From: Candidatus Aminicenantales bacterium
Lineage (GTDB): Bacteria > Acidobacteriota > Aminicenantia > Aminicenantales > Saccharicenantaceae
Length of the DNA stretch: 64,000 nucleotides
Direction of reading: 5' to 3'
Assembly: GCA_049513915.1 (NCBI GenBank)
Contig: JBEKVN010000002.1
Span: 242-64,241 of the forward strand
This document shows, piece after piece, positions 23,230 to 43,052 of the stretch. Within the stretch, counting starts at the first letter, position 1; every line of letters starts with the position of its first letter. The notes under the pieces were generated by a model. It was not told the origin of the DNA. It worked only from the letters and a program-made list of their open reading frames with translations, and did not search any database. The position numbers were made by a program, and so were the translations under genes.

Positions 23230-24714
<1,485 letters not shown>

Positions 24715-24964: not shown

Positions 24965-27900
24965 ATGGACAAGCGGGAGGCGGGGCAGACGACGGCCTCG
25001 GGTCATCTCCGGAAGATCCGCGAGCTTCTTGACCGAGCTATGCTCCGCGATAAAGAACAGGCCGTCCGTGCGCTGAGCGTGCTCCAAAGGCAACACGGGG
25101 GAGGCGCGCGGCCCGTGTCCGAGGGGCTCCTCCGCGACCTGGCCGCGCTCGAGGAACGGCTGGCGGCTTCGGCCGGCGAATGTCAGCGCCGGGCCCGCGC
25201 CCGGCCGCGAGTTTCGTATCCGCGCGAACTCCCCATCACCGCGCGCGCCGGCGAGATCATCGAGGCCATCCGCTCGCCCCGCAATCGGGTCGTCATCATC
25301 TCGGGGGAGACCGGCTGCGGCAAGAGCACCCAGATCCCTAAGATGTGCCTCGAGGCGGGGCGGGGGGTCGCCGGGCTCATCGGCTGCACTCAGCCGCGGC
25401 GCATCGCCGCCGTCACCATCGCCTACCGGATCGCCGAAGAGCTGGGTGAGGAGCTCGGCCGCTCCGTGGGCTACAAGATCCGCTTCCAGGACCGGACCTC
25501 CCGTGACGGCTACGTCAAGATCATGACCGACGGCATTCTGCTCGCCGAAACTCAGGGCGACCGCCGCCTCACGGACTATGACACGATCATCATCGACGAG
25601 GCCCACGAGCGCTCCCTCAACATCGATTTCCTCCTCGGCATCATGCGCCGGCTCCTCGACGACCGGCCCGAGCTCAAGCTGGTCATCACTTCGGCGACCC
25701 TGGATACGGAGAAGTTCTCGCAGGCCTTCCGGAACGCGCCCGTCATCGAGGTCAGCGGTCGGCTCTACCCCGTCGAGCTCGAGTACCGCCCGCCCGCGAA
25801 GGACACGGCCGAAGACAAGGACTACGTGGACCAGGCGGTCGAGGCCGTCGAATACATCCGGTGGGACAAGGCGGCCGGCGACATTCTCGTCTTCATGCCG
25901 ACCGAACAGGACATCCTCGAGACGCGCCGCATCCTCGAGGGGCGTAAATTTCCGGATACGGCGGTCCTGCCGCTCTTCTCGCGCCTGCCGGCGGGGCAGC
26001 AGCGCATGGTCTACAGCGTGAGCCGGCCGAAAATCGTCATCGCCACGAACGTCGCCGAGACTTCGCTTACGATCCCCGGCATCCGCTACGTCGTGGACAC
26101 GGGAGTCGCGCGGATCGCCCAGTACCAGCCGGGGACGCGCATCAACAGCCTGCCGATCAGCCCGATCTCGCGGGCTTCGGCGGACCAGCGCAAGGGGCGC
26201 TGCGGCCGCGTCCGGGAAGGGCTCTGCGTCCGGCTCTACTCGGAAACCGAATACGAATCGCGCGACGAATTCACGTCGCCGGAGATCCTGCGCTCGGACC
26301 TGGCCGAGGTCATCTTGAGGATGATCGACCTGGGGTTGGGTCATCCGCTCGAGTTCCCGTTCATCGACCGGCCCGCGGCCAAAACCGTGCGCGACGGCTA
26401 CGAAACGCTCGTCGAGCTCGGCGCGATTTCCAGAAGGGGGACACAATACTCTGTCCCTGAATATGAGCGGTCGGGAAAAGCGGGACAGAGTATTGTGTCC
26501 CCCTTAAGGATAAATGCGCAAGGCCCCGATTGGGCGCTCACCGACAAGGGCCGGATCATGGCCCGGATGCCCCTGGACCCGCGCGTCTCCCGAATGCTCG
26601 TCGAGGCCGGCCGCGAGAATTGCCTCCCCGAGGTCGCCGTCCTGGCCGCCGCCCTGAGCATCCGCGACCCGCGCGAGCGGCCTCCCGAGCTCGCGTCCCA
26701 GGCCGATGCCGTGCACGCCGCCTTCCGTGACCCGAACAGCGATTTCCTGCTTCTCCTGAACATTTGGAACCGCTACCACGGCGATTTTGAAAAGCTCGGG
26801 ACGGTCACCCAGAAGCGCAAGTTCTGCCACGATCATTTCCTCTCGTTCCCCAGGATGCGCGAGTGGGTCTACCTCTATGACGAGATCCGCTCTGTCCTCT
26901 CCGAACAGCACCAGACGCCGGGCAAAACCAAAGGGGAAGTCGGGCCCAAAAATCCGGAAACAAATATTGTGTCGCCGAAAAATAAATTGAAAGCGGAGGG
27001 CAAGGCGGCCGTCGTGCCCCACGCCGATATCTCGCCCGTCCTTTATGCCGCCATCCATCGCTCTATCCTGGCGGGATTCCTGTCAAATATCGCCGCTCTC
27101 AAAGAAAAGCGCATCTACACCGCGGCCAAGAACCGGGAGGTGACCCTCTGGCCGGGTTCCGTCCTCTTCAGCAAGGCGCCCGCCTGGATCGTGGCCACCG
27201 AGGTCGTCAAGACCTCGCGTCTGTTCGCCCGCCAGGCCGCGCGCATCGACCCCGCCTGGCTCGAGGACCTGGGCGGCTCCCTCTGCAAGCGCTCCTATTA
27301 CGACGCCGCCTGGGACCGCGGCCGTGGCGAGGTCGCGGCCAAGGAGCGGGTCACCCTGTTCGGCCTGGAGATCCTTCGCGACCGGCGCGTTTCCTACGGC
27401 CGGATCAACCCGGCCGAGGCGCATGAGATCTTCGTCATGTCCGGGTTGGTTGAAGGAGAGGTGGACGGTCCGCCCGCCTTCCTCCCGCACAACCTCGGCC
27501 TCCAGCACAAGGTCGAGGCCATGGAGGAAAAGCTCCGCCGCCGCGACATCATGATTCCCGAGGCCGAAATCGCCAAGCTCTATTCGGCCCGCCTGCCCGG
27601 AATTTGCGACATCCGGTCGCTTCTCAAGCTCATCAAGGACCGGGGCGGCGACGATTTCCTGCGCTTCACCGAAGACGACCTCATCCTCAGGCGCCCCGAC
27701 GCCGATACGGTGTCCGCGTTCCCCGACACAGTCGAGGTCGCCGGCCGCCCTTTCAGGGCTGTCTATAAGTTCGCCCCGGGCGAGGACGACGACGGCGTGA
27801 CCCTGAAGGTCCCGGCCTCGATCCTCTCCGCCATTCCCGACGGCCGGCTCGAATGGGGAGTCCCGGGGCAGTACAAGGACAAGATCGCCGCCCTGATCAA

Positions 27901-29332
27901 GGGCCTCCCCAAACGGTACAGGAAGCTCCTTGTCCCGGTGGGGGAGAAGGCTGAGACGATCGCCGCCGAGATGCCGCAGGCGCCGGAGGAGGCGCCGCTC
28001 GCGAAGGCCGTGGCGGAGTTCGTCAGGCGCCGGTTCGGGGCGGACATCCCGGCCCGCGAATGGGCCCTGGCCGAAGTCCCGAAATACCTGAGAATGCGCC
28101 TGGCCGTGACCGACCCCGCGACCGGCCGCGTCATTGACACCGGCCGCGACGTCGAGCTCCTGCGGAAAAAGATCGGCGCGGCGGACGAGGCCCCGTCGAA
28201 GGTCGAATCGCCCGCCTGGCAGGAGGCCCGCCGGAAATGGGAAAAGGCGGGATTGACGTCGTGGGTCTTCGGCGATTTGCCGGCCAAGATCGTTGTCGGG
28301 ACATCCCTCACGGCCTATCCCGCGCTCGCGGTCGAGGGCGGCCAGGCTTCGGTTGAAATCCGCCTTTTTCCGGCGCGGGCCGAGGCCGAGGCGTCTCACC
28401 GACTCGGCGTCCGTTGGCTCCTCATGCTGAAATTCGCCAAAGACCTGGGCTTCGTCAGGCGGTATCACAAGATTCCGGCCGAATATGAGCGTGCGGCGGT
28501 GGCCTTCGGAGGCCGCGACGCCGTGGAGCGGGCCATCGAGAGCGCCCTGGCCCGCGAGGTCTTCGAGCGGGACATCCGCACGGATGCGGATTATAAGGCC
28601 TACGAGGCCGAGGTCGGCCGGACGCTCTTCGAGAAGGGGCATGCCCTGACCCAGACGACGCTCAAGATCCTCGAACTCAACCAGGCCCTGCGGACGGAGC
28701 TCGGGAACGGCCGGCCCGCGACCCAGCGGGGGGCGTCAAGAAGGGGTCAAATCTTCATTCTGCCACTTTCCGGAAAGAACGAGCCCCAGAAAAAGTGGCA
28801 GAATGAAGATTTGACCCCTTCTTATTTGTCGCGCGGCCGCGTCAAAGAGCCCGTCGTCCCCGCTTACTTCGAAGAGATCGCGGGCGACCTGGACGAGCTC
28901 CTGCCCGCGAATTTTCTCGAAGTTTATCCGGTCGACAGGATCATCCGCATCCCGCGCCTCCTCGACGCCTTGAAGATCCGGCTGGGGCGCGCCCGGCTCG
29001 ATCCCGAGAAGGACAAGGCCAAGGCCGCTCAGGTCGAGCCCTTCGAATTCGCGTTATCTCAGTTCGAAGCGGAAACCCCGGGCGCCGGCGCGGGGACACC
29101 AGAATTGGGGACACAATACTCATTTCCGAATTACGGTGGGGGAGCGGGGACCAGAAAAACGGAAATTAGTATTGTGTCCCCGAATTTGGAAAAGCGCCGC
29201 GCGGTCGGGGAGCTCCGCCGCATGATAGAGGAGTTCAAGGTCTCCCTTTTCGCTCCCGAGATCAAGACCGTCTTTCCCATCTCGGCCGTCCGCTTGGCCC
29301 GCAAGATCAAAGAGATCGAGGCGATTGTTTAA
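24965..29332 (+). CDS. hrpA: ATP-dependent RNA helicase HrpA (DEAH-box) carrying several in-frame palindromic insertions
   Basis: Motifs GETGCGKSTQIPK, IIIDEAHERS, SATLD and QRKGRCGR, plus an HrpA-type C-terminal region. The track ORF begins at a TTG inside a repeat (24932); the ATG at 24965 (MDKREAGQ...) is preferred. Total length about 1455 aa, longer than typical HrpA because of the insertions. Confidence 0.9.
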   Translation: MDKREAGQTTASGHLRKIRELLDRAMLRDKEQAVRALSVLQRQHGGGARPVSEGLLRDLAALEERLAASAGECQRRARARPRVSYPRELPITARAGEIIEAIRSPRNRVVIISGETGCGKSTQIPKMCLEAGRGVAGLIGCTQPRRIAAVTIAYRIAEELGEELGRSVGYKIRFQDRTSRDGYVKIMTDGILLAETQGDRRLTDYDTIIIDEAHERSLNIDFLLGIMRRLLDDRPELKLVITSATLDTEKFSQAFRNAPVIEVSGRLYPVELEYRPPAKDTAEDKDYVDQAVEAVEYIRWDKAAGDILVFMPTEQDILETRRILEGRKFPDTAVLPLFSRLPAGQQRMVYSVSRPKIVIATNVAETSLTIPGIRYVVDTGVARIAQYQPGTRINSLPISPISRASADQRKGRCGRVREGLCVRLYSETEYESRDEFTSPEILRSDLAEVILRMIDLGLGHPLEFPFIDRPAAKTVRDGYETLVELGAISRRGTQYSVPEYERSGKAGQSIVSPLRINAQGPDWALTDKGRIMARMPLDPRVSRMLVEAGRENCLPEVAVLAAALSIRDPRERPPELASQADAVHAAFRDPNSDFLLLLNIWNRYHGDFEKLGTVTQKRKFCHDHFLSFPRMREWVYLYDEIRSVLSEQHQTPGKTKGEVGPKNPETNIVSPKNKLKAEGKAAVVPHADISPVLYAAIHRSILAGFLSNIAALKEKRIYTAAKNREVTLWPGSVLFSKAPAWIVATEVVKTSRLFARQAARIDPAWLEDLGGSLCKRSYYDAAWDRGRGEVAAKERVTLFGLEILRDRRVSYGRINPAEAHEIFVMSGLVEGEVDGPPAFLPHNLGLQHKVEAMEEKLRRRDIMIPEAEIAKLYSARLPGICDIRSLLKLIKDRGGDDFLRFTEDDLILRRPDADTVSAFPDTVEVAGRPFRAVYKFAPGEDDDGVTLKVPASILSAIPDGRLEWGVPGQYKDKIAALIKGLPKRYRKLLVPVGEKAETIAAEMPQAPEEAPLAKAVAEFVRRRFGADIPAREWALAEVPKYLRMRLAVTDPATGRVIDTGRDVELLRKKIGAADEAPSKVESPAWQEARRKWEKAGLTSWVFGDLPAKIVVGTSLTAYPALAVEGGQASVEIRLFPARAEAEASHRLGVRWLLMLKFAKDLGFVRRYHKIPAEYERAAVAFGGRDAVERAIESALAREVFERDIRTDADYKAYEAEVGRTLFEKGHALTQTTLKILELNQALRTELGNGRPATQRGASRRGQIFILPLSGKNEPQKKWQNEDLTPSYLSRGRVKEPVVPAYFEEIAGDLDELLPANFLEVYPVDRIIRIPRLLDALKIRLGRARLDPEKDKAKAAQVEPFEFALSQFEAETPGAGAGTPELGTQYSFPNYGGGAGTRKTEISIVSPNLEKRRAVGELRRMIEEFKVSLFAPEIKTVFPISAVRLARKIKEIEAIV
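26436..26503. repeat. Perfect 22-bp inverted repeat (GGGGGACACAATACTCTGTCCC … GGGACAGAGTATTGTGTCCCCC, 24-nt loop) inside the hrpA coding frame
   Basis: Read directly at 26436–26457 and 26482–26503. Encodes …SRRGTQYSVPEYERSGKAGQSIVSP… between conserved HrpA blocks (…LVELGAI | LTDKGRIMARMPLDPRVSRML…). Confidence 0.9.
26956..26993. repeat. Degenerate solo arm of the same GGGACAC-type element inside hrpA
   Basis: GGAAACAAATATTGTGTCGCCGAAAAATAAATTGAAAG resembles the right arm of the 29102–29187 element (CGGAAATTAGTATTGTGTCCCCGAATTTGGAAAAG). No partner arm is visible. Confidence 0.45.
28738..28823. repeat. Perfect 32-bp inverted repeat (AAGAAGGGGTCAAATCTTCATTCTGCCACTTT … AAAGTGGCAGAATGAAGATTTGACCCCTTCTT, 22-nt loop) inside the hrpA coding frame
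   Basis: Read directly. Encodes …RGQIFILPLSGKNEPQKKWQNEDLTPSYL… in frame. Confidence 0.9.
29102..29187. repeat. Near-perfect inverted repeat (GAATTGGGGACACAATACTCATTTCCG … CGGAAATTAGTATTGTGTCCCCGAATTT) inside the hrpA coding frame, sharing the GGGACAC core with the RAYT REPs
   Basis: Arms with 1–2 mismatches and a ~31-nt loop. Encodes …ELGTQYSFPNYGGGAGTRKTEISIVSPNLEK… in frame. The first 15 nt are identical to the 26436 element. Confidence 0.85.
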
Positions 29333-30992: not shown

Positions 30993-31059
30993 GAGGGAGC
31001 GCCCGGCCTGAAACGGGAGGCATTGAAGCGCGGATTCTATGAGTTCATAGGAGGTTCGA

Positions 31060-32598: not shown

Positions 32599-32634
32599 CG
32601 TGAGCCGGCGCCCGGCCTGAAACAGGAGGCATGA

Positions 32635-33978: not shown

Positions 33979-34043
33979 TAATCGGCCCAGCTTCTTTTCC
34001 CGGTGTTTTCCTGGCCGGAAGACGTCACTAAGTGCTCGATTTG

Positions 34044-34134
34044 GAGGCCGAAAACATCAAGTTAAGGCCAATAAGGGGAGCGAAAAAGAAGCTTGTTTGT
34101 TTTGTATCAATCAGATAAGTTGGTCCGACCCCAA
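34044..34134. repeat. Composite palindromic repeat locus D (half-hairpin GGAGGCCGAAAACATCAAGTTAAGG + TTGGTCCGACCCCAA box)
   Basis: Half hairpin at 34044–34068. Box at 34120–34134, preceded by the conserved GATAAGT. Intergenic between the deacetylase gene and the vapBC pair. Confidence 0.7.
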
Positions 34135-34152
34135 AAGCTACTGGCGTCCGTC

Positions 34153-34509
34153 CTAATACGCAACATTCAATCGAGCCGCCGTCCTGCTGAGCGTGCGGTC
34201 GAGTGTCCAGAGCGGCGCCCCGGTGATAACCGCAGACGCCAGCAGGTGGACGTCGATGTATCCGAGGCCGATCCCGGCGAGCCGGCGAAGCTCGATAAAC
34301 CTCATCGCCTCTTCGTCGCTCACCGCGGCCGCCCGGGGGAGGGTTTGGAGCAGGTCCAGAATTTCCCTCCGGTTCTTGAGATTCCCGCAAGCCAATTCGC
34401 CGACGATGAACGGATGGGAAAGGACTTCCCCCTTATCGAGCGCCGCCCCGAGCCGGTCATTCCCTTCCCGGAAATGGGCTACCCAAACCGACGTATCGAC
34501 CAGAACCAT
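34153..34509 (-). CDS. vapC: PIN-domain toxin VapC
   Basis: MVLVDTSVWVAHF... with the N-terminal Asp quartet context typical of PIN/VapC. Lies directly downstream of a small antitoxin gene. Confidence 0.8.
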   Translation of the reverse strand: MVLVDTSVWVAHFREGNDRLGAALDKGEVLSHPFIVGELACGNLKNRREILDLLQTLPRAAAVSDEEAMRFIELRRLAGIGLGYIDVHLLASAVITGAPLWTLDRTLSRTAARLNVAY

Positions 34510-34512
34510 ATG

Positions 34513-34707
34513 TCAATCCGCCGCTCTTCGTCTCGGAATGGGGCGTAATCCCTTCTCCGTTCCGCCGAGCTTCGCCAGCCGCCGGCTGCTCTCCAGGGCA
34601 ATCAGCGATTCCAGGCCCTTTCTGACCAGGGATGTTTTTTCCTTAATTCCGGTCATCTCCGCGGCGGTTTTCAGAAGATTGTCGTCGATATTGATGGTCG
34701 TCCTCAT
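34513..34707 (-). CDS. vapB: VapB-family antitoxin
   Basis: 64-aa protein MRTTINIDDNLLKTAAEMTGIKEKTSLVRKGLESL... typical of the small VapB/'DUF2191'-type antitoxins. 3-bp gap to vapC. Confidence 0.6.
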   Translation of the reverse strand: MRTTINIDDNLLKTAAEMTGIKEKTSLVRKGLESLIALESSRRLAKLGGTEKGLRPIPRRRAAD

Positions 34708-34740
34708 ATGTATATATATGCATCATTAATGCATATAAGT
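34705..34740. promoter_or_regulatory. Candidate vapBC-1 operator/promoter: AT-rich palindromes CATATGTATATATATG and TATATGCAT-cattA-ATGCATATA
   Basis: Perfect 9-bp inverted repeat at 34715–34737, immediately upstream of the vapB start (34707, minus strand). Confidence 0.4.
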
Positions 34741-34867
34741 CAAGGGGGTCACGAGACTCCTTCGTTTCTCTTGTAAAGGACGCAGGCTAACGCGCTCCAT
34801 TATCAATTGTTGAAAGAGGCCTACATCCCCCGCCCGGTCATGCTAAAATAGGCGGGAGGTGTCCGAC

Positions 34868-35893
34868 ATGGAGAAGAAACCTTCATCCTGGGCGGCGGCC
34901 CGCGATCAGGCGATCGACGAGTTCCTTGACACGTTCGCGGATTCCCCCGACCGCGACCTCCTGGCCGAGATCATGGTCACGGTCACCCGGCTGGCCCGCG
35001 AGAAAACGGGCCGGGGCGAGCTCAAGCTCCTCACCTCGGCGTTCATGGAACTGCGCTACGCGTTCAAGGTTTTCGCGCCGTTTTCCCATATCCGCAAGGT
35101 GAGCATCTTCGGCTCGAGCCGGACGCCGCCCGGCCATCCCGACTACGTCCAGGCCGAGTCGTTCGCGCGGCTCATGCGCCTCCGGAATTGGATGGTCATC
35201 ACCGGCGCCGGCGACGGCATCATGGGGGCCGGTCAGGCCGGGGCCGGGCGCTCGGGCAGCTTTGGCGTCGCTATCCGCCTGCCCCACGAGCAGCAAACGA
35301 ACGAAGTTATCCTGGCCGACCCCAAGCTCATCAACTTCAAGTACTTCTTCACGCGCAAGATCCTGTTCCTGAAGGAAGCCTCGGCCATCTGCCTGTTCCC
35401 GGGCGGGTTCGGCACGCACGATGAGGGGTTCGAGTCGCTGACCATGATCCAGACGGGAAAGGCCAACCTCATGCCCGTGGTCATGGTTGACGCGCCGGGC
35501 GGCACGTACTGGCAGCATTGGCGGACGTACATCAAGGCGGAGCTCCTCCACAACGGGATGATCGCGCCGGAGGACATGAACCTTTTCATGCTCACCGACG
35601 ACGTCGACAAGGCGGTCGAGGAAATCGCCGGCTTTTACCGCCGCTACCATTCGATGCGCTACGTGGGGCCCAGGCTCGTGCTTCGGGTCACGTCACCCGT
35701 GCCGGCTCAGGCTTTGGTGAAGCTCAACGATACGTACTGCGGGATCGTCACAGCCGGCAGGATCGAGCAGTGCGCGGGGCCGGTCGAAGGGGAAGGGGAC
35801 GAATATCCGGGGATGCCGCGGATCACACTCCAGTTCAACCGGAAAAACGTGGGCACACTCCGGCTGATGGTGAACGAGATCAACCAGGCATAG
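34868..35893 (+). CDS. LOG-family (lysine-decarboxylase-like / nucleotide 5'-monophosphate nucleosidase-like) protein with N- and C-terminal extensions
   Basis: Motifs KVSIFGSSR, ITGAGDGIMGAG (GGGxxGxMG-like) and LFPGGFGTHDEGFE (PGGxGTxxE). GGAGG RBS 8 nt upstream of the ATG at 34868; an alternative GTG lies at 34859. Confidence 0.7.
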   Translation: MEKKPSSWAAARDQAIDEFLDTFADSPDRDLLAEIMVTVTRLAREKTGRGELKLLTSAFMELRYAFKVFAPFSHIRKVSIFGSSRTPPGHPDYVQAESFARLMRLRNWMVITGAGDGIMGAGQAGAGRSGSFGVAIRLPHEQQTNEVILADPKLINFKYFFTRKILFLKEASAICLFPGGFGTHDEGFESLTMIQTGKANLMPVVMVDAPGGTYWQHWRTYIKAELLHNGMIAPEDMNLFMLTDDVDKAVEEIAGFYRRYHSMRYVGPRLVLRVTSPVPAQALVKLNDTYCGIVTAGRIEQCAGPVEGEGDEYPGMPRITLQFNRKNVGTLRLMVNEINQA

Positions 35894-36064
35894 GCCCCCA
35901 TCTCGGACACTCAACCCGCCACTTTTTATGGCAATGAACGGTTTTCTATTTCTTGGATACAGTGACTCACCCAAGAGGCTGAGATCTGAATGACCTTTTG
36001 CCGACATCTAAGGCTTTCGGGCATGCACGTGAGAAAATTCAAAAAATCATGTGTTATAAATAAA

Positions 36065-36096
36065 TGTGGTGAAAAATACAACGATTGTGGTAAAAT
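36065..36096 (+). promoter_or_regulatory. Direct repeats TGTGGTGAAAAAT / TGTGGTAAAAT in the AT-rich region upstream of the wHTH-MNT gene (possible autoregulatory operator and -10 element)
   Basis: Two copies 20 nt apart, directly before the ATG at 36108. TAAAAT could serve as a -10. Confidence 0.3.
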
Positions 36097-36107
36097 TTAC
36101 TACAGCA

Positions 36108-36695
36108 ATGACCAAACCTTTGGAGAAGTTGTTCGGCTCGCGCACAAGGGCAAGGCTCCTGGGCTGGTTTTTCACTCATTCCGGCGAATCTTTTTCCGTT
36201 CGTCAATTGGCATCGATCCTTAGAGACGACCCGTCCAACCTCAGCCGTGAGATGGCCAAGCTCGAGGACCTCGGCATCCTGATTTCGTATAGGGATAGGA
36301 ATCTTAAGAGTTTCCGCGTGAACGAAGGGTGCTCATTTGGGCCGGAGCTGAAAGCCCTTATCCAAAAAACGACCGGCATCATCGGGCGGCTGAGGACCGC
36401 TCTCCAAACCGTCATGGGAATCGATTTTGCTTTCGTTTATGGATCTTTCGCCAAAGGGACCGAGAATGCCGAGAGTGATGTGGACCTTTTGATCGTCGGC
36501 GAGGCCGATTTGGATCCGCTCGACCGGTTGTTCTCCGGCCTGGAAAGGGATCTCGGCCGGACCATCAACTACGTGCTTTATAGCAAACGCGAGTATGAGG
36601 CCAAGAAGGCCAAGAAAGATGCGTTCCTTCAAGAAGTGCTGAGAGAGGACAGGATCCGGGTTATTGGGGACGGCGATGGACCTGAAGCGGCTTGA
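36108..36695 (+). CDS. Winged-HTH fused to minimal nucleotidyltransferase (MNT/Polβ-like); antitoxin-like or AbiE-like component
   Basis: N-terminal ArsR-like wHTH (RARLLGWFFTHSGESFSVRQLASIL). NTase signature FVYGSFAKGTENAESDVDLLIV (GSx10DxD). The ATG at 36108 is preferred over the upstream GTG at 36066. Confidence 0.65.
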   Translation: MTKPLEKLFGSRTRARLLGWFFTHSGESFSVRQLASILRDDPSNLSREMAKLEDLGILISYRDRNLKSFRVNEGCSFGPELKALIQKTTGIIGRLRTALQTVMGIDFAFVYGSFAKGTENAESDVDLLIVGEADLDPLDRLFSGLERDLGRTINYVLYSKREYEAKKAKKDAFLQEVLREDRIRVIGDGDGPEAA

Positions 36696-37107
36696 AACTC
36701 TTGGGCTCATTGAAAAGATCAGCCCAAATAGAAAGCAGGCCTTAACCCAACTTGGAAGGGCTCGGCGCGATCTCCTGACATCTGGCGCGAACCTGTTGAT
36801 TGATGAAGAATGGGCTTATACGATTGCTTATCACGCCATGCTTCGAGCCGGGCGTGCGCTCCTTTTAGCCTATGGATACCGGGCCAAGGGGAAAGACCAG
36901 CACAAAACCGTCGTGGAGTTCTCGGCGACGATACTCGGCCCCGAATTCAGCCGCCTGGCCATAAGATTTAACCAGATGCGCATGAAGCGGCATGCGTTTA
37001 TTTATGAAGCCGAAAAACCCGTATCACGGACCGAAGCAGAAAAATCCCTCAAAAGCGCCGGCGAATTTGTTAGAGAGATTGCCGGCAGAGTGGAGAGGCT
37101 GATTTAG
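36676..37107 (+). CDS. HEPN-domain protein (putative RNase toxin partner of the upstream MNT)
   Basis: About 140 aa, all-alpha. Rx4-6H-like motif in RFNQMRMKRHAFIYE. Overlaps the MNT gene's 3' end by ~20 nt, as TA pairs usually do. Confidence 0.55.
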   Translation: MDLKRLETLGLIEKISPNRKQALTQLGRARRDLLTSGANLLIDEEWAYTIAYHAMLRAGRALLLAYGYRAKGKDQHKTVVEFSATILGPEFSRLAIRFNQMRMKRHAFIYEAEKPVSRTEAEKSLKSAGEFVREIAGRVERLI

Positions 37108-37198
37108 CCTGATAGATTTCCTGAGAAGAGCGATTTCGTAAATGAAAAAAGCGATTCTTCCAAGTGCAGAAAAGGCGAAACTCGGCGTGAGACCCCGA

Positions 37199-37378
37199 TG
37201 CGGGCTTTGCGGGAAAACGAAAAACCTCACGAAAACGGATTGCTGCGGAAGCTGGATTTGTGACGATTCTCACATGTCTGATTGCCCAGACAGCCATCGA
37301 GCACGGGCTTTACCTTCTCCACAACGATGCCGACTTCGGCCGGATCGCCCGCGTATCCGCGCTAAAAATCTGGGAGTA
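37199..37378 (+). pseudogene. Remnant of a VapC/PIN toxin gene (C-terminal ~55 codons only)
   Basis: The frame after an internal stop reads ...KRIAAEAGFVTILTCLIAQTAIEHGLYLLHNDADFGRIARVSALKIWE*, which matches the C-terminal half of PIN toxins (DLLIAA.A...G..LVT.N..DF..I). It has no PIN N-terminus or start codon. The annotated ORF 37142–37438 is in a different frame (Cys-rich, doubtful). Confidence 0.35.
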
Positions 37379-37415
37379 ACCTGTTGTCGCGGTGCGCCAC
37401 CTAAGGACACTCGAC

Positions 37416-37796
37416 CTATCCCAGGCGATAGGGGATAAGGATGAACGGGTGCCTTTTTTCATCGAAATCCTTCGAGTCTCTAGTCACCAGCTTGAGGCCG
37501 CTCCGAAGGGCCATGGCAGCCTGGAGCGCGTCCGGAAGCCTCCAGCCGTTTCTCTTCCTCAATTCGGCGGCCCTCGTGGCAACATCCTTCGTCAAGGGCA
37601 GGCACTCGAACTGCTCGCATAGCTCATAGGCGGCAAGCGTCTCGTCTTCGGTTCCCCCGCATAACACCTCTGCCCGCGTGATCACGGAAATGACGGCCTC
37701 TCCCTCACGTAGCTTCTGAAGCCATTTCGTCGCCTCTACGATTCCCCGGAGATGGTCGATAAGAACTGTCGAATCCAGAAGATAGACCGGCTTCAC
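37416..37796 (-). CDS. vapC: PIN-domain toxin VapC (second pair)
   Basis: MKPVYLLDSTVLIDHLRG...VITRAEVLCG...LVTRDSKDF is a canonical PIN/VapC. Overlaps the upstream antitoxin gene by 4 nt. Confidence 0.8.
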   Translation of the reverse strand: MKPVYLLDSTVLIDHLRGIVEATKWLQKLREGEAVISVITRAEVLCGGTEDETLAAYELCEQFECLPLTKDVATRAAELRKRNGWRLPDALQAAMALRSGLKLVTRDSKDFDEKRHPFILIPYRLG

Positions 37797-38044
37797 GTTT
37801 TACGCTCCCACTCCTTGCGCAGAGCGTCGACATGGTCCCGCGTGTCGCCCTTGACCGAGGTCCAGATTCCGGCCGTTTCGCGGAGGACCCCGGCCAGGCC
37901 TTTCTGGGATTTCTTAAGGCGGTATTCCCTGATCGCGCGGCGGACGACCTCGGCGCTCGAGATCCTGTGACGCCGGCTGTAGCTCTCAAGCCACTTCTTT
38001 TCGTCTTCGGGTATCGATACGATTGTCCTGGTCATGGCGGCCAT
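37793..38044 (-). CDS. vapB: Ribbon-helix-helix (CopG/VapB-type) antitoxin
   Basis: ...MTRTIVSIPEDEKKWLESYSRRHRISSAEVVRRAIREYRL is an RHH fold signature. Alternative starts at 38035, 38044 and 38053 (GTG). Confidence 0.65.
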   Translation of the reverse strand: MAAMTRTIVSIPEDEKKWLESYSRRHRISSAEVVRRAIREYRLKKSQKGLAGVLRETAGIWTSVKGDTRDHVDALRKEWERKT

Positions 38045-38047
38045 CTC

Positions 38048-38084
38048 GATCACCTCACCCTATATATATCAGTAAGGTGATATC
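38048..38084. promoter_or_regulatory. Candidate vapBC-2 operator/promoter: GATCACCT…(TATATATAT)…AGGTGATATC inverted repeat
   Basis: 7/8-bp inverted repeat around a TATATATAT core, overlapping or just upstream of the RHH antitoxin start. Confidence 0.35.
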
Positions 38085-38180
38085 ATGTCAACGCGTTTGC
38101 TCAAAGACCGTTACCGGTGACCGAACGCGCCCGCAGCATGATAGACGCCTCCCGATGGCTTTTTTCTCTCGGAGTGAGAA

Positions 38181-38241
38181 AGAAGGGGTCGTATCTACGC
38201 ATTACGCATTTTCCGCGTAATGCGTAGATACGACCCCTTCT
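38181..38241. repeat. Intergenic perfect 27-bp inverted repeat with AGAAGGGGTC…GACCCCTTCT termini (same terminal motif as the 28738–28823 hrpA element)
   Basis: AGAAGGGGTCGTATCTACGCATTACGC attttcc GCGTAATGCGTAGATACGACCCCTTCT. Lies between the vapB start region and the stop of the glycine-zipper gene. Confidence 0.85.
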
Positions 38242-38249
38242 ACTCCAGT

Positions 38250-38801
38250 TTACCTGAATTCCGGGACGCGGGCCTTTTTTCTGAGGGCTTCGATGGCGGC
38301 GTTGATTTTGTCCGGCGTCTCTCCCCGGAAGTTGTAGACTTTGTCCTTGCTGAGCAAGATCCCGAGTCCGTACCCGGCCCCGCCGCCGATGACCACCCCC
38401 AGCCCGGCGAACGGCCATTGCGTTGATTTGGTGACCGGGATATGGGTTTCGTCGCCCTTTTTCCCCAGGGCAAAACCGATAAAGCCGCCGGCCACCGCGC
38501 CGATAACGAGTGTCAAGGGCTTCAGGGACTCGCGCACGACACCGACCGTATCGATGTCCCTGATCTCCACCGTTCTCTCCCGGGAGCCGACCTGGACGAC
38601 GATTTTGTCCCCGCTGATCCCGATCAATTCGCCCAGGATCGTCCCGGGAGATATCAGGGTCACCCGGACCTCAGCGCCCTGTTGCCGCACAGCCAGGGCT
38701 GCCTGGGGCACTCCGGCCATCATGACGGCCATCCCCGACACGATGAGGCCCAGCCGCATCCGTCGCCAGCTGAAACCCTTAATTTTCGCCCATCCGTTCA
38801 T
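38250..38801 (-). CDS. Exported hypothetical protein with glycine-zipper motifs
   Basis: N-terminal signal/TM MRLGLIVSGMAVMMAGVPQAALA. G-x3-G repeats (VIGAVAGGFIGFALG; GLGVVIGGGAGYGLGILL). Confidence 0.45.
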   Translation of the reverse strand: MNGWAKIKGFSWRRMRLGLIVSGMAVMMAGVPQAALAVRQQGAEVRVTLISPGTILGELIGISGDKIVVQVGSRERTVEIRDIDTVGVVRESLKPLTLVIGAVAGGFIGFALGKKGDETHIPVTKSTQWPFAGLGVVIGGGAGYGLGILLSKDKVYNFRGETPDKINAAIEALRKKARVPEFR

Positions 38802-38887
38802 CGCCGCACCGCCTTCCTATATTCGAGGCCTTATCCATAATCCTCTCGGCGGCCGGCGATGTCAAGAATTGATGAATCCGGGCGTGG

Positions 38888-38996
38888 CTTTAAGTCCGCG
38901 TTTTCGAGGCCCAAAACGAGGACTTAAGGCTTAAAACAGGCTCCAAGAGCGAGCTAACTCTAATTATAGCAATAAGATGATTTGGTCCGACCCCAA
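38888..38996. repeat. Composite palindromic repeat locus E (hairpin CTTTAAGTCCGCGTTTTCGAGGCCCAAAACGAGGACTTAAGG + TTGGTCCGACCCCAA box)
   Basis: Hairpin at 38888–38929. Box at 38982–38996, preceded by AATAAGATGAT. Intergenic between the glycine-zipper protein gene and the hybrid kinase gene. Confidence 0.8.
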
Positions 38997-39097
38997 TAAG
39001 ATATCCCCCCCAATTCCATCTCAAAAGGCGATGGCCCCCCGTGGCCGGTTCCCTGACCATATGGATTGATGGGAAACCCTGTCCGAGGGACGGTTGA

Positions 39098-41383
39098 ATG
39101 AGCACGCGCACGGTTGAATCGAAGGCCCCCGCCGGCCAATTGCCGGAGAGCCGGGAACGATTCTCTTCCATCGTTGAAAATTCGCAAGCGGCGATTTTCA
39201 TCATGGACCAGGCCTTCCGGATCCTCTACGTGAACGGCGAGGCCGCCCGAATCTCGGGATTTTCCCGTGAGGAGATGGCCGGCCGGGATTTTCTGATATT
39301 CGTCGACGCCAAGAGCCTGCCGCTCGTGAGGTACTATCAGAACTGCCGGCAGGGCGGAGAGTATGCCCCTTCAAGTTATGAATTCGTTTTCGTCCGAAGA
39401 GACGGGGAGAGAAGGTTCGTAGAATGCAGCGCCTCCCTGATCAAGAATTCGAAGGGAATGTCCGAAACCGTGCTGCAGCTCCTGGACATCACGGACCGGC
39501 TGCAGGCGGGGGAAGACTTGAAGAGCTCGCATGAGATCTTCAAGATCATTTTCGAATACGCGCCCGATAGCATCTTTCTGATCGACCGGAAAGGGATATT
39601 CATCAACGGCAACCGAATGGTGGAAGAATTGACCGGCTATTCGAGGAAGGAAATCATCGGCAATAGCTTCCTGACGTTGGGGCTTCTGCCCCGCGGTCAA
39701 ATTGTCAAAGCGACCGGACTTCTGGCCAAAAGCATCCTGGGCAAGGCCACCGGCCCGGACGGATTGGTTCTGAGAAGAAAAGACGGGTCCGAGTTTCCCG
39801 TTGAAATCAGCACCTATCCCGTCAAAGTCAACGGCCAAACCATCGCTCTAGGGATCGCCCGGGATATAACGGAGCGTAAGCGATCCGAGGAAAACCTGGC
39901 CAAACACCAGGAAAACCTCTGGAACCTCATCAAGGAGCGAACCAAGGAGCTCGAGGAGGCCAAGCAGGCCGCAGATGCGGCCAACCGGGCCAAGAGCGCC
40001 TTTCTCGCCAATATGTCCCACGAGATCCGGACGCCGATGAACGCCATCCTCGGATTCACCCAGCTCATGCAGCGCGACGAAACGCTGGCCGCCCACCAGA
40101 GGCGGCACCTGGACGTCATCAACAGGAGCGGCGAGCACCTGCTGGCCTTGATTACCGACATCCTGGAAATGTCGAAGATCGAGGCCGGCCGGATCACCTT
40201 GAACCCGACGACATTCAGCCTCCAGTCCCTGCTCACCGACTTGGAGATGATATTCCGGCCGCCTGCCGACGCGAAGAATCTCCATTTCAAGGTGGAATGC
40301 CCGGACGACATGCCTCGCTATGTGGAGGGGGACGAAGGCAAACTGCGCCAGATCCTCATCAACCTGCTGGGGAACGCGGTGAAATTCACCCAGGCGGGCG
40401 GCATCGTCTTGAGGGCGCGGCTGGACCCCGAGGGTCCGGACAAGCTGAGGCTCAGCGCGGAAGTCGAGGACTCGGGTCCGGGCATTCCGGAGAAGGAGCA
40501 GGAAAGCCTGTTCACGCCTTTTCAACAAACCCAGAACGGGCGCCGGATGGGGACGGGTACGGGCCTGGGGCTGGCCATCTGCAGGGAATTTGTCCATCTG
40601 ATGGGAGGGGACATCACGGTCAGCAGCCAGCCCGGGAAGGGGAGCCTGTTCAAGTTCCATGTCCTACTGGGAGAGGGGGAGATTGCCGCGGCCGAAAAAA
40701 AATCGGAATCCTACAGGATCAAGAGCCTGCAGCCCGGACAACCAGCCTGTCGAATCATGATCGTCGATGACGAAGACATCAACGGCGCCCTCGTCGCTCA
40801 GATGCTCGGCAGCATCGGGTTCGATACGGGCCGGGCCGCCAACGGCAAGGAAGCCGTTGAGCGGTTCACGGCCTGGCATCCCCACTTGATCCTCATGGAC
40901 ATGCGTTTGCCGGTGATGGATGGGTGTGAAGCCATCCGCCGCATCAGGGCCGGCCCGGGGGGGGCGGACGTCAAGATCATCAGCGTGACCGCCAGCGCCT
41001 TCGAAGAGAACCGCAGGGAAGCGCTCGAAGCCGGCGCCGACGACTTTCTGGCCAAGCCTTTCCGCGAGGCCGTGCTTTTCGAGAAGGTCAAAAAGCTGTT
41101 GGGCATCGAGTATGTGCTCTTGGAGGACACGACGCCCGAGAAAAACCCGCCCCGCGCGGCCGCCACAAGCGCGGTAACGGCGGAAGTCCTGGCCTCTCTA
41201 CCCAGGGATTTCATCCGGAAGATGCGCGAAGCTGTCATCCAGGCGGACTATGACCGGATGATGGGGTTGATCGGCAGCGTGGAAGGCCACAGCGCCCCCG
41301 TCGCCCAGGTGCTCCGGGGCCTCGTCGAACGTTTCGAATACAAGGAACTTTTGGATCTATTGCAAAAGCGAAGGAGCAACTGA
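39098..41383 (+). CDS. Hybrid sensor histidine kinase / response regulator (PAS–PAS–HisKA–HATPase–REC)
   Basis: Two PAS-like segments. H-box SHEIRTPMNAILGF. N/G boxes LINLLGNAVKFT and GTGLGLAIC. Receiver MIVDDEDING...ILMDMRLPVMDG. Confidence 0.85.
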   Translation: MSTRTVESKAPAGQLPESRERFSSIVENSQAAIFIMDQAFRILYVNGEAARISGFSREEMAGRDFLIFVDAKSLPLVRYYQNCRQGGEYAPSSYEFVFVRRDGERRFVECSASLIKNSKGMSETVLQLLDITDRLQAGEDLKSSHEIFKIIFEYAPDSIFLIDRKGIFINGNRMVEELTGYSRKEIIGNSFLTLGLLPRGQIVKATGLLAKSILGKATGPDGLVLRRKDGSEFPVEISTYPVKVNGQTIALGIARDITERKRSEENLAKHQENLWNLIKERTKELEEAKQAADAANRAKSAFLANMSHEIRTPMNAILGFTQLMQRDETLAAHQRRHLDVINRSGEHLLALITDILEMSKIEAGRITLNPTTFSLQSLLTDLEMIFRPPADAKNLHFKVECPDDMPRYVEGDEGKLRQILINLLGNAVKFTQAGGIVLRARLDPEGPDKLRLSAEVEDSGPGIPEKEQESLFTPFQQTQNGRRMGTGTGLGLAICREFVHLMGGDITVSSQPGKGSLFKFHVLLGEGEIAAAEKKSESYRIKSLQPGQPACRIMIVDDEDINGALVAQMLGSIGFDTGRAANGKEAVERFTAWHPHLILMDMRLPVMDGCEAIRRIRAGPGGADVKIISVTASAFEENRREALEAGADDFLAKPFREAVLFEKVKKLLGIEYVLLEDTTPEKNPPRAAATSAVTAEVLASLPRDFIRKMREAVIQADYDRMMGLIGSVEGHSAPVAQVLRGLVERFEYKELLDLLQKRRSN

Positions 41384-42480
41384 TGAAAATAACCCTCACT
41401 TATCCGGGCAAGCCGGATATTCTCGTCGTGGACGATACGGCCTCGAACCTCCAGCTTCTGACGAACATGCTGAAGGAACGGGGGTACAAAACGCGGCCGG
41501 TGCCCAGCGGGATGCAGGCCCTTCAGGCCGCCTTGAGCGACCCCCCGGACCTGATCCTGCTCGACGTCAACATGCCGCAGATGAATGGGTTCGAGGTGTG
41601 CCAAAGCCTGAAAGCCGACGAAAAGTTGAAGGACATCCCGGTCATCTTCATCAGCGCTCTCAACGAGGTGCTGGACAAGGTCAAGGCCTTCTCGGTCGGC
41701 GGTGTGGACTACATCACCAAGCCGTTCCAGTTCGACGAAGTCCAGGCCCGGGTGGATACGCACTTGAAGCTCCGGCACCTTCAGAAGGAACTTGAGAAGC
41801 ACAACCAGCAACTGGGAAAACTCGTTCAGGCCCAAGTGAAGAAGATCTCGGACACGCAAATGGCGTTGATATTCGCCCTGGCCAAGCTGGCGGAATCGCG
41901 GGATGACGATTCGGGGATGCACCTCGAACGTGTCCAGGCCTTCTGCAAAACGCTGGCCGAAGGGCTGGCCCGGCGCCCGCATTTCGGCGGGCAGGTCGAC
42001 GGGAAATTCATCGAGAACATTTTTCACGCGAGCCCGCTCCACGACATCGGCAAGGTCGCCATCCCGGATCGCATCATCCTCAAACCCGGCAAACTAACCC
42101 CTGAGGAATTCGAGGTGATGAAAACCCACGCCAAGATGGGGGCCGAAAAGTTGGAGGCCGTCCAGCGAAGATTCCCCGGAAACGCACTGCTCGATATGGG
42201 AATCGCCATCGCCAGGTTCCATCATGAAAAGTGGAGCGGGGAAGGTTATCCCCAGGGCTTGGCGGGCGAGGCCATCCCGCTTTGCGCGCGTATCATGGCG
42301 GTCGTGGACGTTTATGAGACCTTGCGGGCGAAGCGCTGCTACAAGCCCGCCTTCACTCATGAAGAGAGCGCGGAGATCATCATCAATTCGAGCGGGACGC
42401 ACTTCGATCCCGAGATCGTCAAGGTCTTTGTCGAACTCAAGGAAGAATTCAGAGCAATACGCGACGGGATGAAGGATTAG
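41383..42480 (+). CDS. Response regulator with HD-GYP phosphodiesterase output domain
   Basis: REC (ILVVDDTASNLQLL...LILLDVNMPQMNG) followed by HD-GYP motifs LHDIGKVAIPD and HHEKWSGEGYPQGL. Start overlaps the stop of the hybrid kinase. Confidence 0.85.
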   Translation: MKITLTYPGKPDILVVDDTASNLQLLTNMLKERGYKTRPVPSGMQALQAALSDPPDLILLDVNMPQMNGFEVCQSLKADEKLKDIPVIFISALNEVLDKVKAFSVGGVDYITKPFQFDEVQARVDTHLKLRHLQKELEKHNQQLGKLVQAQVKKISDTQMALIFALAKLAESRDDDSGMHLERVQAFCKTLAEGLARRPHFGGQVDGKFIENIFHASPLHDIGKVAIPDRIILKPGKLTPEEFEVMKTHAKMGAEKLEAVQRRFPGNALLDMGIAIARFHHEKWSGEGYPQGLAGEAIPLCARIMAVVDVYETLRAKRCYKPAFTHEESAEIIINSSGTHFDPEIVKVFVELKEEFRAIRDGMKD

Positions 42481-42892
42481 CGGCGGGGGGGCTCTTCTCC
42501 GTGGCAGTATTTGTCACGCAGGCGCGGGAATCGACCAGCGAAGCGCAAAGATTTGGCGAATCTGGGCGGAACAAATCTACGCTGTCCCCATTATTTCTCT
42601 TGACATTTGAGGTTTGGATAATTTAGGATTCAAATAACCTTTCTACTTAGAAAGGTCAAGGAAGGGTTGTTTAGTTGGCGGAACCGATCGGCACCGAAGA
42701 AGGGGCAGCACCAATCCTCTCTCTTTTTTATTGTGAAGTGACCTCTGTGCATTGCCCTTTATGTCCCCGACCCTGCATTATCTAAATTTCGGTGCCGGCC
42801 TGCCGCGGTTCTTATGAGCATCTGCGGTAGATGATGTGTGCGTGTTTTCGCCGTCCGCCTGCCTTCAGGCGCCCAAGGGCGGTAGCCTGTAA

Positions 42893-43040: not shown

Positions 43041-43052
43041 TATTGAGATAAA

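Follow-up and report, generated by a model that had tools for sequence, protein, structure and literature searches.

We describe a segment of an uncultured Candidatus Aminicenantales genome, within a 64-kb window (the whole stretch of DNA analysed), that is very probably the central part of a chromosomal hotspot for toxin–antitoxin (TA) accretion. This hotspot would lie between the helicase gene hrpA and a hybrid kinase operon, with a LOG-family gene at its centre, modules that turn over singly, and two flanking repeats, D and E, that do not delimit it. Three intact TA gene pairs and two gene wrecks are clustered around the conserved LOG gene (Table 1), and since all matches in the 64-kb window to a non-exhaustive panel of 40 TA proteins are confined to 34.1–38.1 kb, the local TA clustering is real. 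Our reading draws on what the sequences show directly: which domains and catalytic residues are present, how the operons are laid out, how composition varies, and where eight related loci on metagenome contigs keep synteny or carry indels. The variable interval, from the end of hrpA (29,332) to the start of the kinase (39,098), exceeds the D-to-E segment singled out in an earlier note on this DNA. hrpA is syntenic in three of the relatives (L065, L067 and L189), and the hybrid kinase is syntenic and 84% identical at the nucleotide level in L067.

We propose that three intact two-gene modules, VapB–VapC, wHTH-NTase–HEPN (PDC-M05) and RHH–VapC, settled in the spacers flanking LOG, and that the VapC tail and the truncated Cys-rich gene are traces of earlier occupants. 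The modules would be gained, lost and replaced singly, not as a block. Each is a self-contained operon of overlapping or abutting genes, with a promoter palindrome in both vapBC-type operons. Going by characterised relatives, an antitoxin would bind and neutralise its toxin and repress its own promoter, and stress or infection would free the toxin. RNA cleavage is expected of the PIN toxins; how the HEPN protein acts is less sure. Toxin activity and its neutralisation, autoregulation, and any part in defence or persistence are inferred. D and E, as copies of a ~110-nt repeat common in this lineage, would have landed in two spacers, and would neither delimit nor move the cluster.

Table 1. Features of the TA cluster and its borders (window positions)
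Feature	Position	Strand	Evidence
hrpA, DEAH-box helicase; conserved left border of variable interval	24965..29332	+	TIGR01967, 1184 bits
Repeat D, intergenic copy of ~110-nt family	34028..34134	+	nhmmer E=1.4e-17
vapC-1, PIN-domain toxin, 118 aa	34153..34509	-	Pfam PIN, E=5.4e-12
vapB-1 antitoxin, 64 aa	34513..34707	-	Pfam VapB_antitoxin PF09957, E=1.3e-14
Perfect 9-nt inverted repeat TATATGCAT-5-ATGCATATA, candidate operator, immediately upstream of vapB-1	34715..34737	.	palindrome in sequence
LOG-family (TIGR00730-like) nucleotide phosphoribohydrolase gene	34868..35893 (alternative start 34859)	+	PF03641, E=7e-24
wHTH–minimal nucleotidyltransferase (NTase), MntA-like, PDC-M05A, 195 aa	36108..36695	+	PADLOC PDC-M05A, E=1.7e-49
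HEPN-domain partner, PDC-M05B, 143 aa	36676..37107 (alternative start 36664)	+	Pfam HEPN E=1.8e-5; PADLOC PDC-M05B E=5.3e-17
Truncated 5' part of Cys-rich gene (…PRCGLCGKTKNLTKTDCCGSWICDD…), gene wreck	37142..37280 (end approximate)	+	shared ~30-aa motif
VapC (PIN) C-terminal remnant, translation …LIAQTAIEHGLYLLHNDADFGRIARVSALKIWE and stop, gene wreck	37233..37379	+	NCBIfam VapC positions 94–125/125, E=3.7e-8
vapC-2, PIN-domain toxin, 126 aa	37416..37796	-	Pfam PIN, E=3.3e-18
RHH (CopG-type) antitoxin; 4-nt overlap with vapC-2	37793..38053	-	Pfam RHH_1, E=2e-4
10-nt inverted repeat ATCACCTCAC-13-GTAAGGTGAT around TATATAT, at/upstream of RHH gene start; candidate operator	38049..38081	.	palindrome in sequence
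Perfect 27-nt inverted repeat, 7-nt loop, just past stop of 183-aa gene	38181..38241	.	terminator-like
Hypothetical protein, 183 aa, hydrophobic Gly-rich segments	38250..38801	-	no family match
Repeat E, second copy of same ~110-nt family	38886..38996	+	nhmmer E=2.6e-18
Hybrid histidine kinase and response regulator with HD domain; conserved right border	39098..42480	+	syntenic in L067, 84% nt identity

The earlier gene calls (vapBC, LOG, wHTH-NTase/HEPN, a VapC remnant and RHH–VapC) stand in Pfam, NCBIfam and PADLOC profile searches. VapC-1 has acidic residues D5, E38, D86 and D104, is encoded 3 nt from its antitoxin gene, and is 90% and 64% identical in amino acids to proteins at the same position in L061 and L067. 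The corresponding residues of VapC-2 are D8, E43, D89 and D107; L067 encodes a 77% identical protein at the same position, with an RHH antitoxin of 78% identity, and in L189 a 71% homologue of this antitoxin is partnered with a different PIN protein. Palindromes had been noted upstream of both antitoxin genes, and we find both; the first may act as the vapB-1 operator, as in autoregulated type II TA operons, and the second is a candidate operator for the RHH gene.

In the NTase/HEPN pair, the NTase matches Pfam Polbeta, NTP_transf_2 and HTH_20, and its GS…DxD motif spans G112–D126; an alternative GTG start at 36,066 would give 209 aa. The PADLOC-type HMM check proposed earlier assigns the two proteins to PDC-M05A and PDC-M05B. 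Their genes overlap by 20 nt, and L188 and L189 likewise have the NTase in this position after LOG (83% and 76% amino acid identity). The HEPN protein has R102-x3-H106 in place of the canonical Rx4-6H motif, and its role as a toxin is uncertain because the canonical form is absent. Given this R-x3-H motif, a paralogue with N in place of the motif H, and the extra wHTH on the NTase, RNase activity and AMPylation control are not assured.

Both wrecks lie just beyond this pair. The VapC C-terminal fragment, called frameshifted from the letters alone, is borne out by its NCBIfam match and by a frame that differs from that of the ORF at 37142–37438; L189 has an intact VapB/PIN module whose end is 74% identical to it in amino acids. 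Absent from the earlier list is the second wreck, the truncated Cys-rich gene, of which about 46 codons are left. Its ~30-aa motif is common to 151 representative proteins of about 50–620 aa, and the full sequences of five of these run to 100–207 aa and belong to no Pfam family.

The composition of the segment is patchy, as had been noted: GC falls to 0.47–0.54 at 35.8–37.4 kb, across the NTase/HEPN genes, against 0.60–0.68 nearby, and GC3 is 0.66 for the NTase and 0.58 for HEPN against 0.88 for LOG and 0.84 for hrpA. The claim that the segment holds only conflict-type genes fails, on LOG, which is core-like, and on the 183-aa ORF, which matches no Pfam, NCBIfam or PADLOC family. The latter is no recognised conflict gene; a 60% amino acid homologue adjoins LOG in L068. 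The inverted repeat just past its stop is unique within the window. LOG itself carries the motif PGGFGTHDE (residues 178–186), among solved structures it is closest to type II LOG enzymes (e.g. 5WQ3, E=9e-35), and it is found in 7/7 related LOG loci. With a GC3 near that of hrpA, 7991 homologues at E<1e-40, and 77–95% identity in relatives, we judge LOG to be a native, probably vertically inherited core anchor rather than cargo, and the segment to be a mosaic of native LOG and separately inherited two-gene modules.

LOG might instead be a working part of a larger conflict system with the flanking modules. It could, for instance, sense or break down a nucleotide signal, or adjust nucleotide pools for dormancy, and such cooperation would explain why TA genes gather around it. 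TA modules lie directly beside LOG in six of the seven related LOG loci as well as in the window itself, LOG also matches the SLOG cluster-4 family PF18306 (E=2e-7), and L065 carries LOG as a tandem duplication. Some defence systems include SLOG domains, and in E. coli the LOG-family enzyme PpnN is under (p)ppGpp control. However, the adjoining modules are unrelated in type and orientation and each is complete, LOG stands with no TA module in L191, and LOG shows much stronger conservation than the genes beside it, has native codon composition, and has no match in PADLOC. We consider a joint system improbable.

Turnover of single modules is evident among the relatives. The genes adjacent to LOG are VapB/PIN, Phd/PIN, NTase/HEPN, AbiEii/AbiEi, or nothing: L188 reads Pyr_redox–Phd/PIN–LOG–NTase/HEPN, L068 reads Phd/PIN–LOG–homologue of the 183-aa gene, L065 has its two LOG paralogues followed by AbiEii/AbiEi, and in L189 hrpA is followed by at least ten TA modules around LOG, one of them the same NTase/HEPN pair. 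The close relatives also differ downstream of the deacetylase, which adjoins vapBC in L061 (91% nucleotide identity) and is followed by other genes in L062 and L063, so that these three loci differ in content despite 85–93% nucleotide identity of their flanking genes. As the relatives are metagenome contigs of unplaced phylogeny, any of these differences may be a gain or a loss.

The earlier note had read the D-to-E segment as one mobile or exchangeable islet, moved by recombination or transposition between repeats in the same orientation. Of this, an exchangeable TA region stands, with neighbours that vary between relatives, and a mobile unit delimited by repeats does not. The repeats themselves are real: with an nhmmer profile built from 143 copies, D and E are full-length, co-oriented members of one family, which has a degenerate 40-nt palindrome, a fixed 53-nt spacer and the invariant terminus TTGGTCCGACCCCAA. 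They bracket every TA gene of the window and enclose a compositionally patchy interior, and copies adjoin TA modules in L188, L189, L067 and L068, where they may facilitate recombination. Yet L067 keeps the order hrpA–vapBC–LOG–PIN/RHH–kinase with no repeat at the D or E position, and in L061 the deacetylase–vapBC spacer lacks D and is 70 nt long against 200 nt in the window. D and E share 67% identity, which lies within the range of repeat pairs in the window (52–67%). The repeats sit elsewhere in every relative compared, the segment encloses the core gene LOG, and no integrase or transposase lies between D and E. The family is also widespread: it matches at least 119 metagenome stretches, with at least nine copies within 13 kb of contig L086, lies between genes in 144/148 copies, and has no orientation bias. 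Across 119 unrelated repeat-bearing loci 9/867 ORFs are TA-like, which is no significant association in a comparison whose background gene calls were crude. D and E look like ordinary genome-wide intergenic repeats that do not mark a mobile unit, and the repeat-bounded islet, on the evidence of L067 and L061, seems largely refuted and very unlikely.

Scarcely credible, finally, is a fixed ancestral core arrangement whose differences merely reflect the distance of the relatives compared: the collinearity of vapBC-1, LOG, vapBC-2 and kinase between the window and L067, and the NTase/HEPN pair after LOG in three genomes (76–83% amino acid identity, compatible with vertical descent) would fit it, but the reading is already contradicted by L062/L063, L065, L068 and L189, by a spacer that holds VapB/PIN, Phd/PIN, AbiE or none, and by two gene wrecks inside the segment.

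Both vapBC-type pairs resemble type II VapBC in an antitoxin gene upstream of, and abutting or overlapping, a PIN gene of ~120 aa, in all four acidic residues, and in a promoter palindrome, with nothing unusual seen; because they score 31.6 and 37.5 bits against an NCBIfam equivalog cut-off of 80, they are divergent members of the family. The NTase/HEPN pair resembles MNT–HEPN systems (type VII HepT–MntA TA systems; the PADLOC candidate defence system PDC-M05) in a GS…DxD NTase gene upstream of, and overlapping, HEPN, and in its strong PDC-M05 profile matches. PDC-M05 combines HEPN with an NTase that bears an ArsR-like HTH, and a single representative protected E. coli against at least one phage (PMC12988326; bioRxiv 10.1101/2024.09.26.614923). 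The pair differs in its R-x3-H motif, and solved MNT/MntA chains are short (108–139 aa), lack the N-terminal wHTH, and match only at E=0.03–0.1.

Like REP/REPIN and MITE-type repeats, the D/E family is short, intergenic, palindrome-bearing, numerous and orientation-independent, sometimes in head-to-head pairs and at positions that vary between relatives. It differs in having no terminal inverted repeats with target-site duplication, and the window's RAYT-like gene is flanked by another palindrome family. A tandem duplication across the 3' junction, present in 27% of copies, is one that we could not assign to a known mechanism. The locus as a whole resembles defence/TA hotspots between core genes, as hrpA and the kinase enclose variable TA/defence cargo of atypical composition, with decayed remnants and content that varies between relatives. 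It differs in having no integrase, tRNA or phage-satellite signature, in the conserved core gene LOG at its middle, and in cargo that turns over as single two-gene modules. The locus is a further example of this known kind of TA/defence hotspot.

The organization of this locus fits that of a hotspot at which toxin–antitoxin (TA) modules accrete around a core LOG-family gene, rather than that of a single transferable islet, because its modules behave independently and are variously shared among relatives, and two gene wrecks lie among them. An earlier note had read the segment between D and E, two copies of a ~110-nt intergenic repeat, as a repeat-bounded mobile islet of TA and conflict genes. 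Its observations are mostly right. All of its gene calls hold (VapBC-1, LOG, wHTH-NTase, HEPN, PIN-2 and RHH), D and E belong to one repeat family, both being full-length and pointing the same way, composition is patchy, with GC down to 0.47–0.54 over 35.8–37.4 kb, and palindromes are found as candidate operators upstream of both antitoxin genes. The frameshifted VapC fragment is also real: it reads up to LIAQTAIEHGLYLLHNDADFGRIARVSALKIWE and a stop, aligns with the final 32 positions of a VapC model (E=3.7e-8), and shares 74% aa identity with the end of a VapB/PIN toxin in a related locus, L189. Since a 40-protein TA panel matches only 34.1–38.1 kb of the 64-kb window, the TA clustering itself is real.

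Features of the locus and its surroundings, in window coordinates
Feature	Position	Strand	Details
110-nt repeat copy	8104–8211	−	
110-nt repeat copy	17121–17229	+	
Fumarase ORF	23230–24714		
CCGACCCCTAAC tandem	24648–24693	reverse	three copies
110-nt repeat copy	24683–24789	−	
110-nt repeat copy	24838–24945	+	
hrpA	24965–29332		
First inverted pair in hrpA	26431–26502		GGGGGACACAATACTCTGTCCC … GGGACAGAGTATTGTGTCCCCC
Second inverted pair in hrpA	29108–29181		GGGACACAATACTCATTTCCG … CGGAAATTAGTATTGTGTCCC
DUF4932/Big_5 gene	30984–32617		512 aa
25-nt direct repeat	30999–31023, 32608–32632		96% identical
110-nt repeat copy D	34028–34133	+	
vapC-1	34153–34509		PIN; PF01850, E=5.4e-12
vapB-1	34513–34707		PF09957; 3-nt gap to vapC-1
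Candidate operator palindrome	34715–34737		upstream of vapB-1
LOG-family gene	34859/34868–35893		Rossmann-fold LOG domain, PF03641, E=7e-24; 341 aa
wHTH + minimal nucleotidyltransferase (NTase)	36066/36108–36695		
HEPN protein	36664/36676–37107		20-nt overlap with NTase gene
Cys-rich gene wreck	37142–~37280		truncated start
VapC remnant	37233–37379		
vapC-2	37416–37796		PIN; PF01850, E=3.3e-18
RHH antitoxin	37793–38053		4-nt overlap with vapC-2
Candidate operator palindrome	38049–38081		upstream of RHH gene
Inverted repeat	38181–38241		perfect, 27 nt, 7-nt loop
183-aa gene	38250–38801	−	
110-nt repeat copy E	38890–38995	+	
Hybrid kinase	39098–42480		
Palindromic repeats	42895–43005		GGAAATTCGGGACAC twice; 21-nt unit GTACGTGTCCCAGGAATTTCC three times
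RAYT-like Y1 transposase gene	43053–43733		PF01797, E=6e-8; NCBIfam REP_Tyr_transpos, E=2e-17, below cut-off
Low-GC block	43734–64000		GC 0.48; GC3 0.4–0.6

Related loci carry the argument. GTDB species representatives, recovered with a deacetylase search, share at most 67% aa identity and synteny limited to that one gene, which is too distant for an indel test; protein clusters led to closer ones. One of them, L067 on a 638-kb contig, reads hrpA–vapC/vapB–LOG–PIN/RHH–hybrid kinase–response regulator–Phd/PIN–RAYT–polysaccharide genes. It shares vapBC-1 and vapBC-2 with the window and is collinear with it at 34188–34743, 34886–35885, 37421–38101, 39088–42482 and 43050–43709. Relative to L067, the window holds three extra pieces, namely 29331–34187 (Pyr_redox, DUF4932, deacetylase and D), 35886–37420 (NTase/HEPN and the wrecks) and 38102–39087 (the 183-aa gene and E), and the latter two place indels inside the supposed islet. 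The variable interval of the window runs from hrpA to the hybrid kinase (29332–39098), wider than the segment of the earlier note.

Further relatives hold other gene sets. L061 (88–93% nt identity) has Pyr_redox–deacetylase–vapC–vapB with a deacetylase–vapC spacer of 70 nt that lacks D, against 200 nt in the window; L062 and L063 (86% nt) have no vapBC and carry other genes after the deacetylase. L188 reads Pyr_redox–Phd/PIN–double repeat–LOG–NTase(83%)/HEPN, L068 reads Phd/PIN–LOG–double repeat–homologue of the 183-aa gene, and L065 reads tricorn protease–repeat–hrpA–Pyr_redox–small ORFs–LOG paralogue–LOG–AbiEii/AbiEi. In L191 (LOG 78% aa), no TA gene adjoins LOG and the LOG…RAYT…polysaccharide backbone is kept. 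The most crowded is L189 (1–16588 of GCA_964525875.1, CAZGJS010000015.1), where at least 10 modules of TA or abortive-infection type (Phd/PIN, VapB/PIN, NTase/HEPN twice, AbiEii/AbiEi and Fic) lie within ~13 kb around LOG, downstream of hrpA. Before LOG stand hrpA, an NTase/HEPN paralogue, two Phd/PIN modules and a VapB/PIN module; after it come two small ORFs, NTase(76%)/HEPN(83%), AbiEii/AbiEi and a PIN with an RHH-like partner, then Fic, AbiEii/Phd, Phd/PIN and again AbiEii/AbiEi. The NTase/HEPN pair is common to the window, L188 and L189 and is not found in L067, L065 or L068, and the homologue of the window's RHH antitoxin in L189 is partnered with a different PIN.

The conserved backbone is hrpA … LOG … kinase/regulator … RAYT. 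Different lineages accumulate different TA modules in the spacers around LOG, with each module behaving as an independent two-gene unit, and the two wrecks are signs of decay. A repeat-bounded mobile islet is not supported. We found no block presence or absence with junctions at repeats in the relatives: L067 keeps vapBC–LOG–vapBC–kinase with no repeat at the D or E position, L061 has its vapC and vapB without D, and the indels are internal. Nor are D and E a matched pair, as they are 67% identical and other window pairs 52–67%. No recombinase, transposase or tRNA/att site was found at 34.0–39.0 kb, and across the whole window tRNA genes are absent and no Rfam family reaches its gathering score.

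The claim that the segment contains only conflict genes likewise fails. LOG is hrpA-like in composition (GC3 0.88, against 0.84 for hrpA, 0.66 for the NTase and 0.58 for HEPN) and strongly conserved, with 7991 homologues at E<1e-40 and 77–95% identity in relatives, and it occurs in every related locus examined. Its motifs are intact (PGGFGTHDE at residues 178–186, for PGGxGTxxE, and GAGDGIMG at 113–120), and its TIGR00730 score of 86.2 bits falls under the cut-off of 96.35. The 183-aa gene, in turn, has no family in Pfam, NCBIfam or PADLOC. Just past its stop lies the inverted repeat, which is probably a terminator and is unique in the window and all fetched loci except L001/L002, the Logan copy of the same contig (the same 8-kb stretch is present in Logan SRR7028477). 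Rfam miRNA/sRNA matches at 38137–38241 are artefacts of this perfect hairpin.

The NTase/HEPN pair is identified by PADLOC profile search, with the NTase matching PDC-M05A (PDLC04368, 1.7e-49) and the adjacent, overlapping HEPN gene matching PDC-M05B (PDLC04375, 5.3e-17); as a predicted pair it satisfies the PADLOC definition of candidate system PDC-M05. This type has been described as an ArsR-like-HTH nucleotidyltransferase with a HEPN protein and as enriched in Archaea (PMC12988326; bioRxiv 10.1101/2024.09.26.614923), and one cold-seep representative, distinct from the window pair, has been reported to protect E. coli from phage (bioRxiv 10.1101/2024.09.26.614923). NCBIfam MntA matches the NTase at E=1.9e-7 and 30.9 bits, under its 60-bit cut-off, and the nearest solved relative of the HEPN protein, the UPF0332 HEPN AF0298, is found only at E=0.14. 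NTase homologues on plasmids are all distant (at most 35% aa), with one more on a phage, and are uninformative on recent origin. Judged from translation, the catalytic residues expected of active PIN and NTase proteins are present. The NTase, encoded upstream of HEPN, has GS…DxD as G112-S113…D124-V-D126, and the acidic residues that follow the usual PIN pattern, rather than a structure-based assignment, are D5, E38, D86 and D104 in VapC-1 and D8, E43, D89 and D107 in VapC-2. Between HEPN and vapC-2 lies a second wreck, overlooked in the earlier note; it retains the truncated start of a protein from an uncharacterised Cys-rich family with the motif PRCGLCGKTKNLTKTDCCGxWICDD. That family has 151 representatives at 50% clustering; the five fully read are 100–207 aa without a Pfam family, and those scanned lack a Pfam family save one with DUF6398.

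Rather than island borders, D and E are ordinary copies of a REP/MITE-like family that spans the lineage, and gene order persists without them in L067. In the unit of ~110 nt, an imperfect palindrome of 40 nt (CTTAAG…GTTTT-loop-AAAAC…CTTAAG) is followed by a spacer fixed at 53 nt, within which lie a small hairpin (GGCC) and an AT-rich stretch, and then by an invariant terminus, TGGTCCGACCCC. Six units occupy five loci of the window in both orientations at pairwise identities of 52–67%, one locus (24683–24945) being a head-to-head pair. The repeat also occurs in L065, L067, L068, L188 and L189, at positions in the LOG locus that differ in every relative, and is abundant in Aminicenantes-like metagenome contigs, where an exact-pattern scan found at least 119 stretches with it (L069–L187), including at least nine copies in 13 kb of contig L086; viral contigs gave no match to the pattern. 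Among the matches listed, 144 of 148 distinct copies are intergenic. Repeats and TA genes show no significant association in the 119 listed metagenome loci (3/84 repeat-bearing against 11/664 other spacers beside TA-like genes, p=0.2), and only 9 of their 867 ORFs are TA-like, a background against which the LOG locus stands out as unusually TA-dense.

Several other accounts of the repeat were considered. In 27% of copies, the last few bases of the element plus 4–14 nt of flank are tandemly duplicated at the 3' junction (3.6% at random CCCC sites); a classical MITE with target-site duplication is rejected, as no two-sided duplication is found. A structured RNA is unsupported: single-sequence folds give a strong palindrome in some subfamilies only, no Rfam match appears at E≤1, and RNAalifold on a MAFFT alignment yields no consensus helix. 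A promoter or terminator is rejected for lack of orientation bias, the matches listed dividing 60 same to 54 opposite strand for downstream genes and 60 to 45 for upstream ones. In locus C, the CCGACCCCTAAC tandem stands at the end of the left repeat and overlaps the final ~20 fumarase codons, so junction duplication may have remodelled the fumarase C-terminus and stop codon.

Other repeats lie in the flanks. The uninterrupted hrpA ORF holds two REPIN-like inverted pairs, which look like palindromic elements tolerated inside coding sequence; the segment that contains the first is length-polymorphic, measuring 108 nt here and 60 nt in L065, and this 48-nt difference leaves the reading frame intact. 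The DUF4932/Big_5 gene, which L061, L062 and L063 lack, is an insertion between Pyr_redox and the deacetylase with native GC3 (0.86); the direct repeat on either side of it takes in the ribosome-binding site and the start region. The transposase-like gene nearest to the segment is the RAYT-like ORF, syntenic in L067; L191 has a Y1_Tnp gene at the equivalent position. Downstream of the RAYT-like ORF, the long low-GC block (upstream GC is ~0.63 and GC3 ~0.85) encodes polysaccharide biosynthesis, with sugar-nucleotide epimerases and dehydratases among its genes; in L067 and L191, too, RAYT is followed by polysaccharide genes.

On a broader reading, the interval from hrpA through LOG to the kinase would be where TA and defence modules land site-specifically throughout Aminicenantales, with the 110-nt repeat as a recombination or landing pad and LOG as a partner that couples nucleotide pools to toxin activation. 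In five of the eight related loci examined, TA modules adjoin the repeat, which shows tandem duplication at its junction and could for these reasons be such a pad; the joint reading as a whole strikes us as improbable. The accretion hotspot, in an uncultured phylum, is a modest but clean example of TA accumulation in an interval flanked by conserved core genes, and at pangenome scale could serve as a marker for surveys of defence and TA turnover in Aminicenantales. A set of conflict genes with same-orientation repeats on either side is not thereby a mobile element if the repeat is a lineage-wide intergenic family and gene order survives without it. The repeat family is a more unusual object than the TA locus, and the NTase/HEPN pair adds an example of the PDC-M05 type, a family still largely uncharacterised.

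Comparison with known systems sharpens these assignments. Palindromic repeats in one orientation could suggest an integron. Integron cassettes are ~0.5–1 kb long and end in attC (RYYYAAC…GTTRRRY) near intI, whereas the window repeat has CTTAAG palindrome ends with a conserved 3' terminus 53 nt off; with spacings of 4.9–14 kb, mixed orientations, no attC and no intI or integrase, a cassette array is rejected. In REP/RAYT systems the RAYT gene is flanked by dispersed REP sequences, and here it is the GGAAATTCGGGACAC/GTGTCCCAGGAATTTCC repeats, not the 110-nt family, that precede the RAYT-like gene. The NTase/HEPN pair is laid out like type VII HepT–MntA, whose HEPN protein has an Rx4-6H RNase motif and is AMPylated by the antitoxin, whereas the window helix reads R102-MKR-H106…Y110, that is R-x3-H; because of this spacing, and because H106 is replaced by N in the L189 paralogue, we do not file the pair as a HepT RNase. 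Type II VapBC systems, in which the antitoxin neutralises a growth-arresting toxin and represses the operon, combine a PIN toxin, four acidic residues and a small DNA-binding antitoxin gene directly upstream; with these three components present, both predicted window pairs are unremarkable, divergent members of that type. The LOG protein, finally, resembles type II LOG enzymes, with a structure match at E=9e-35.
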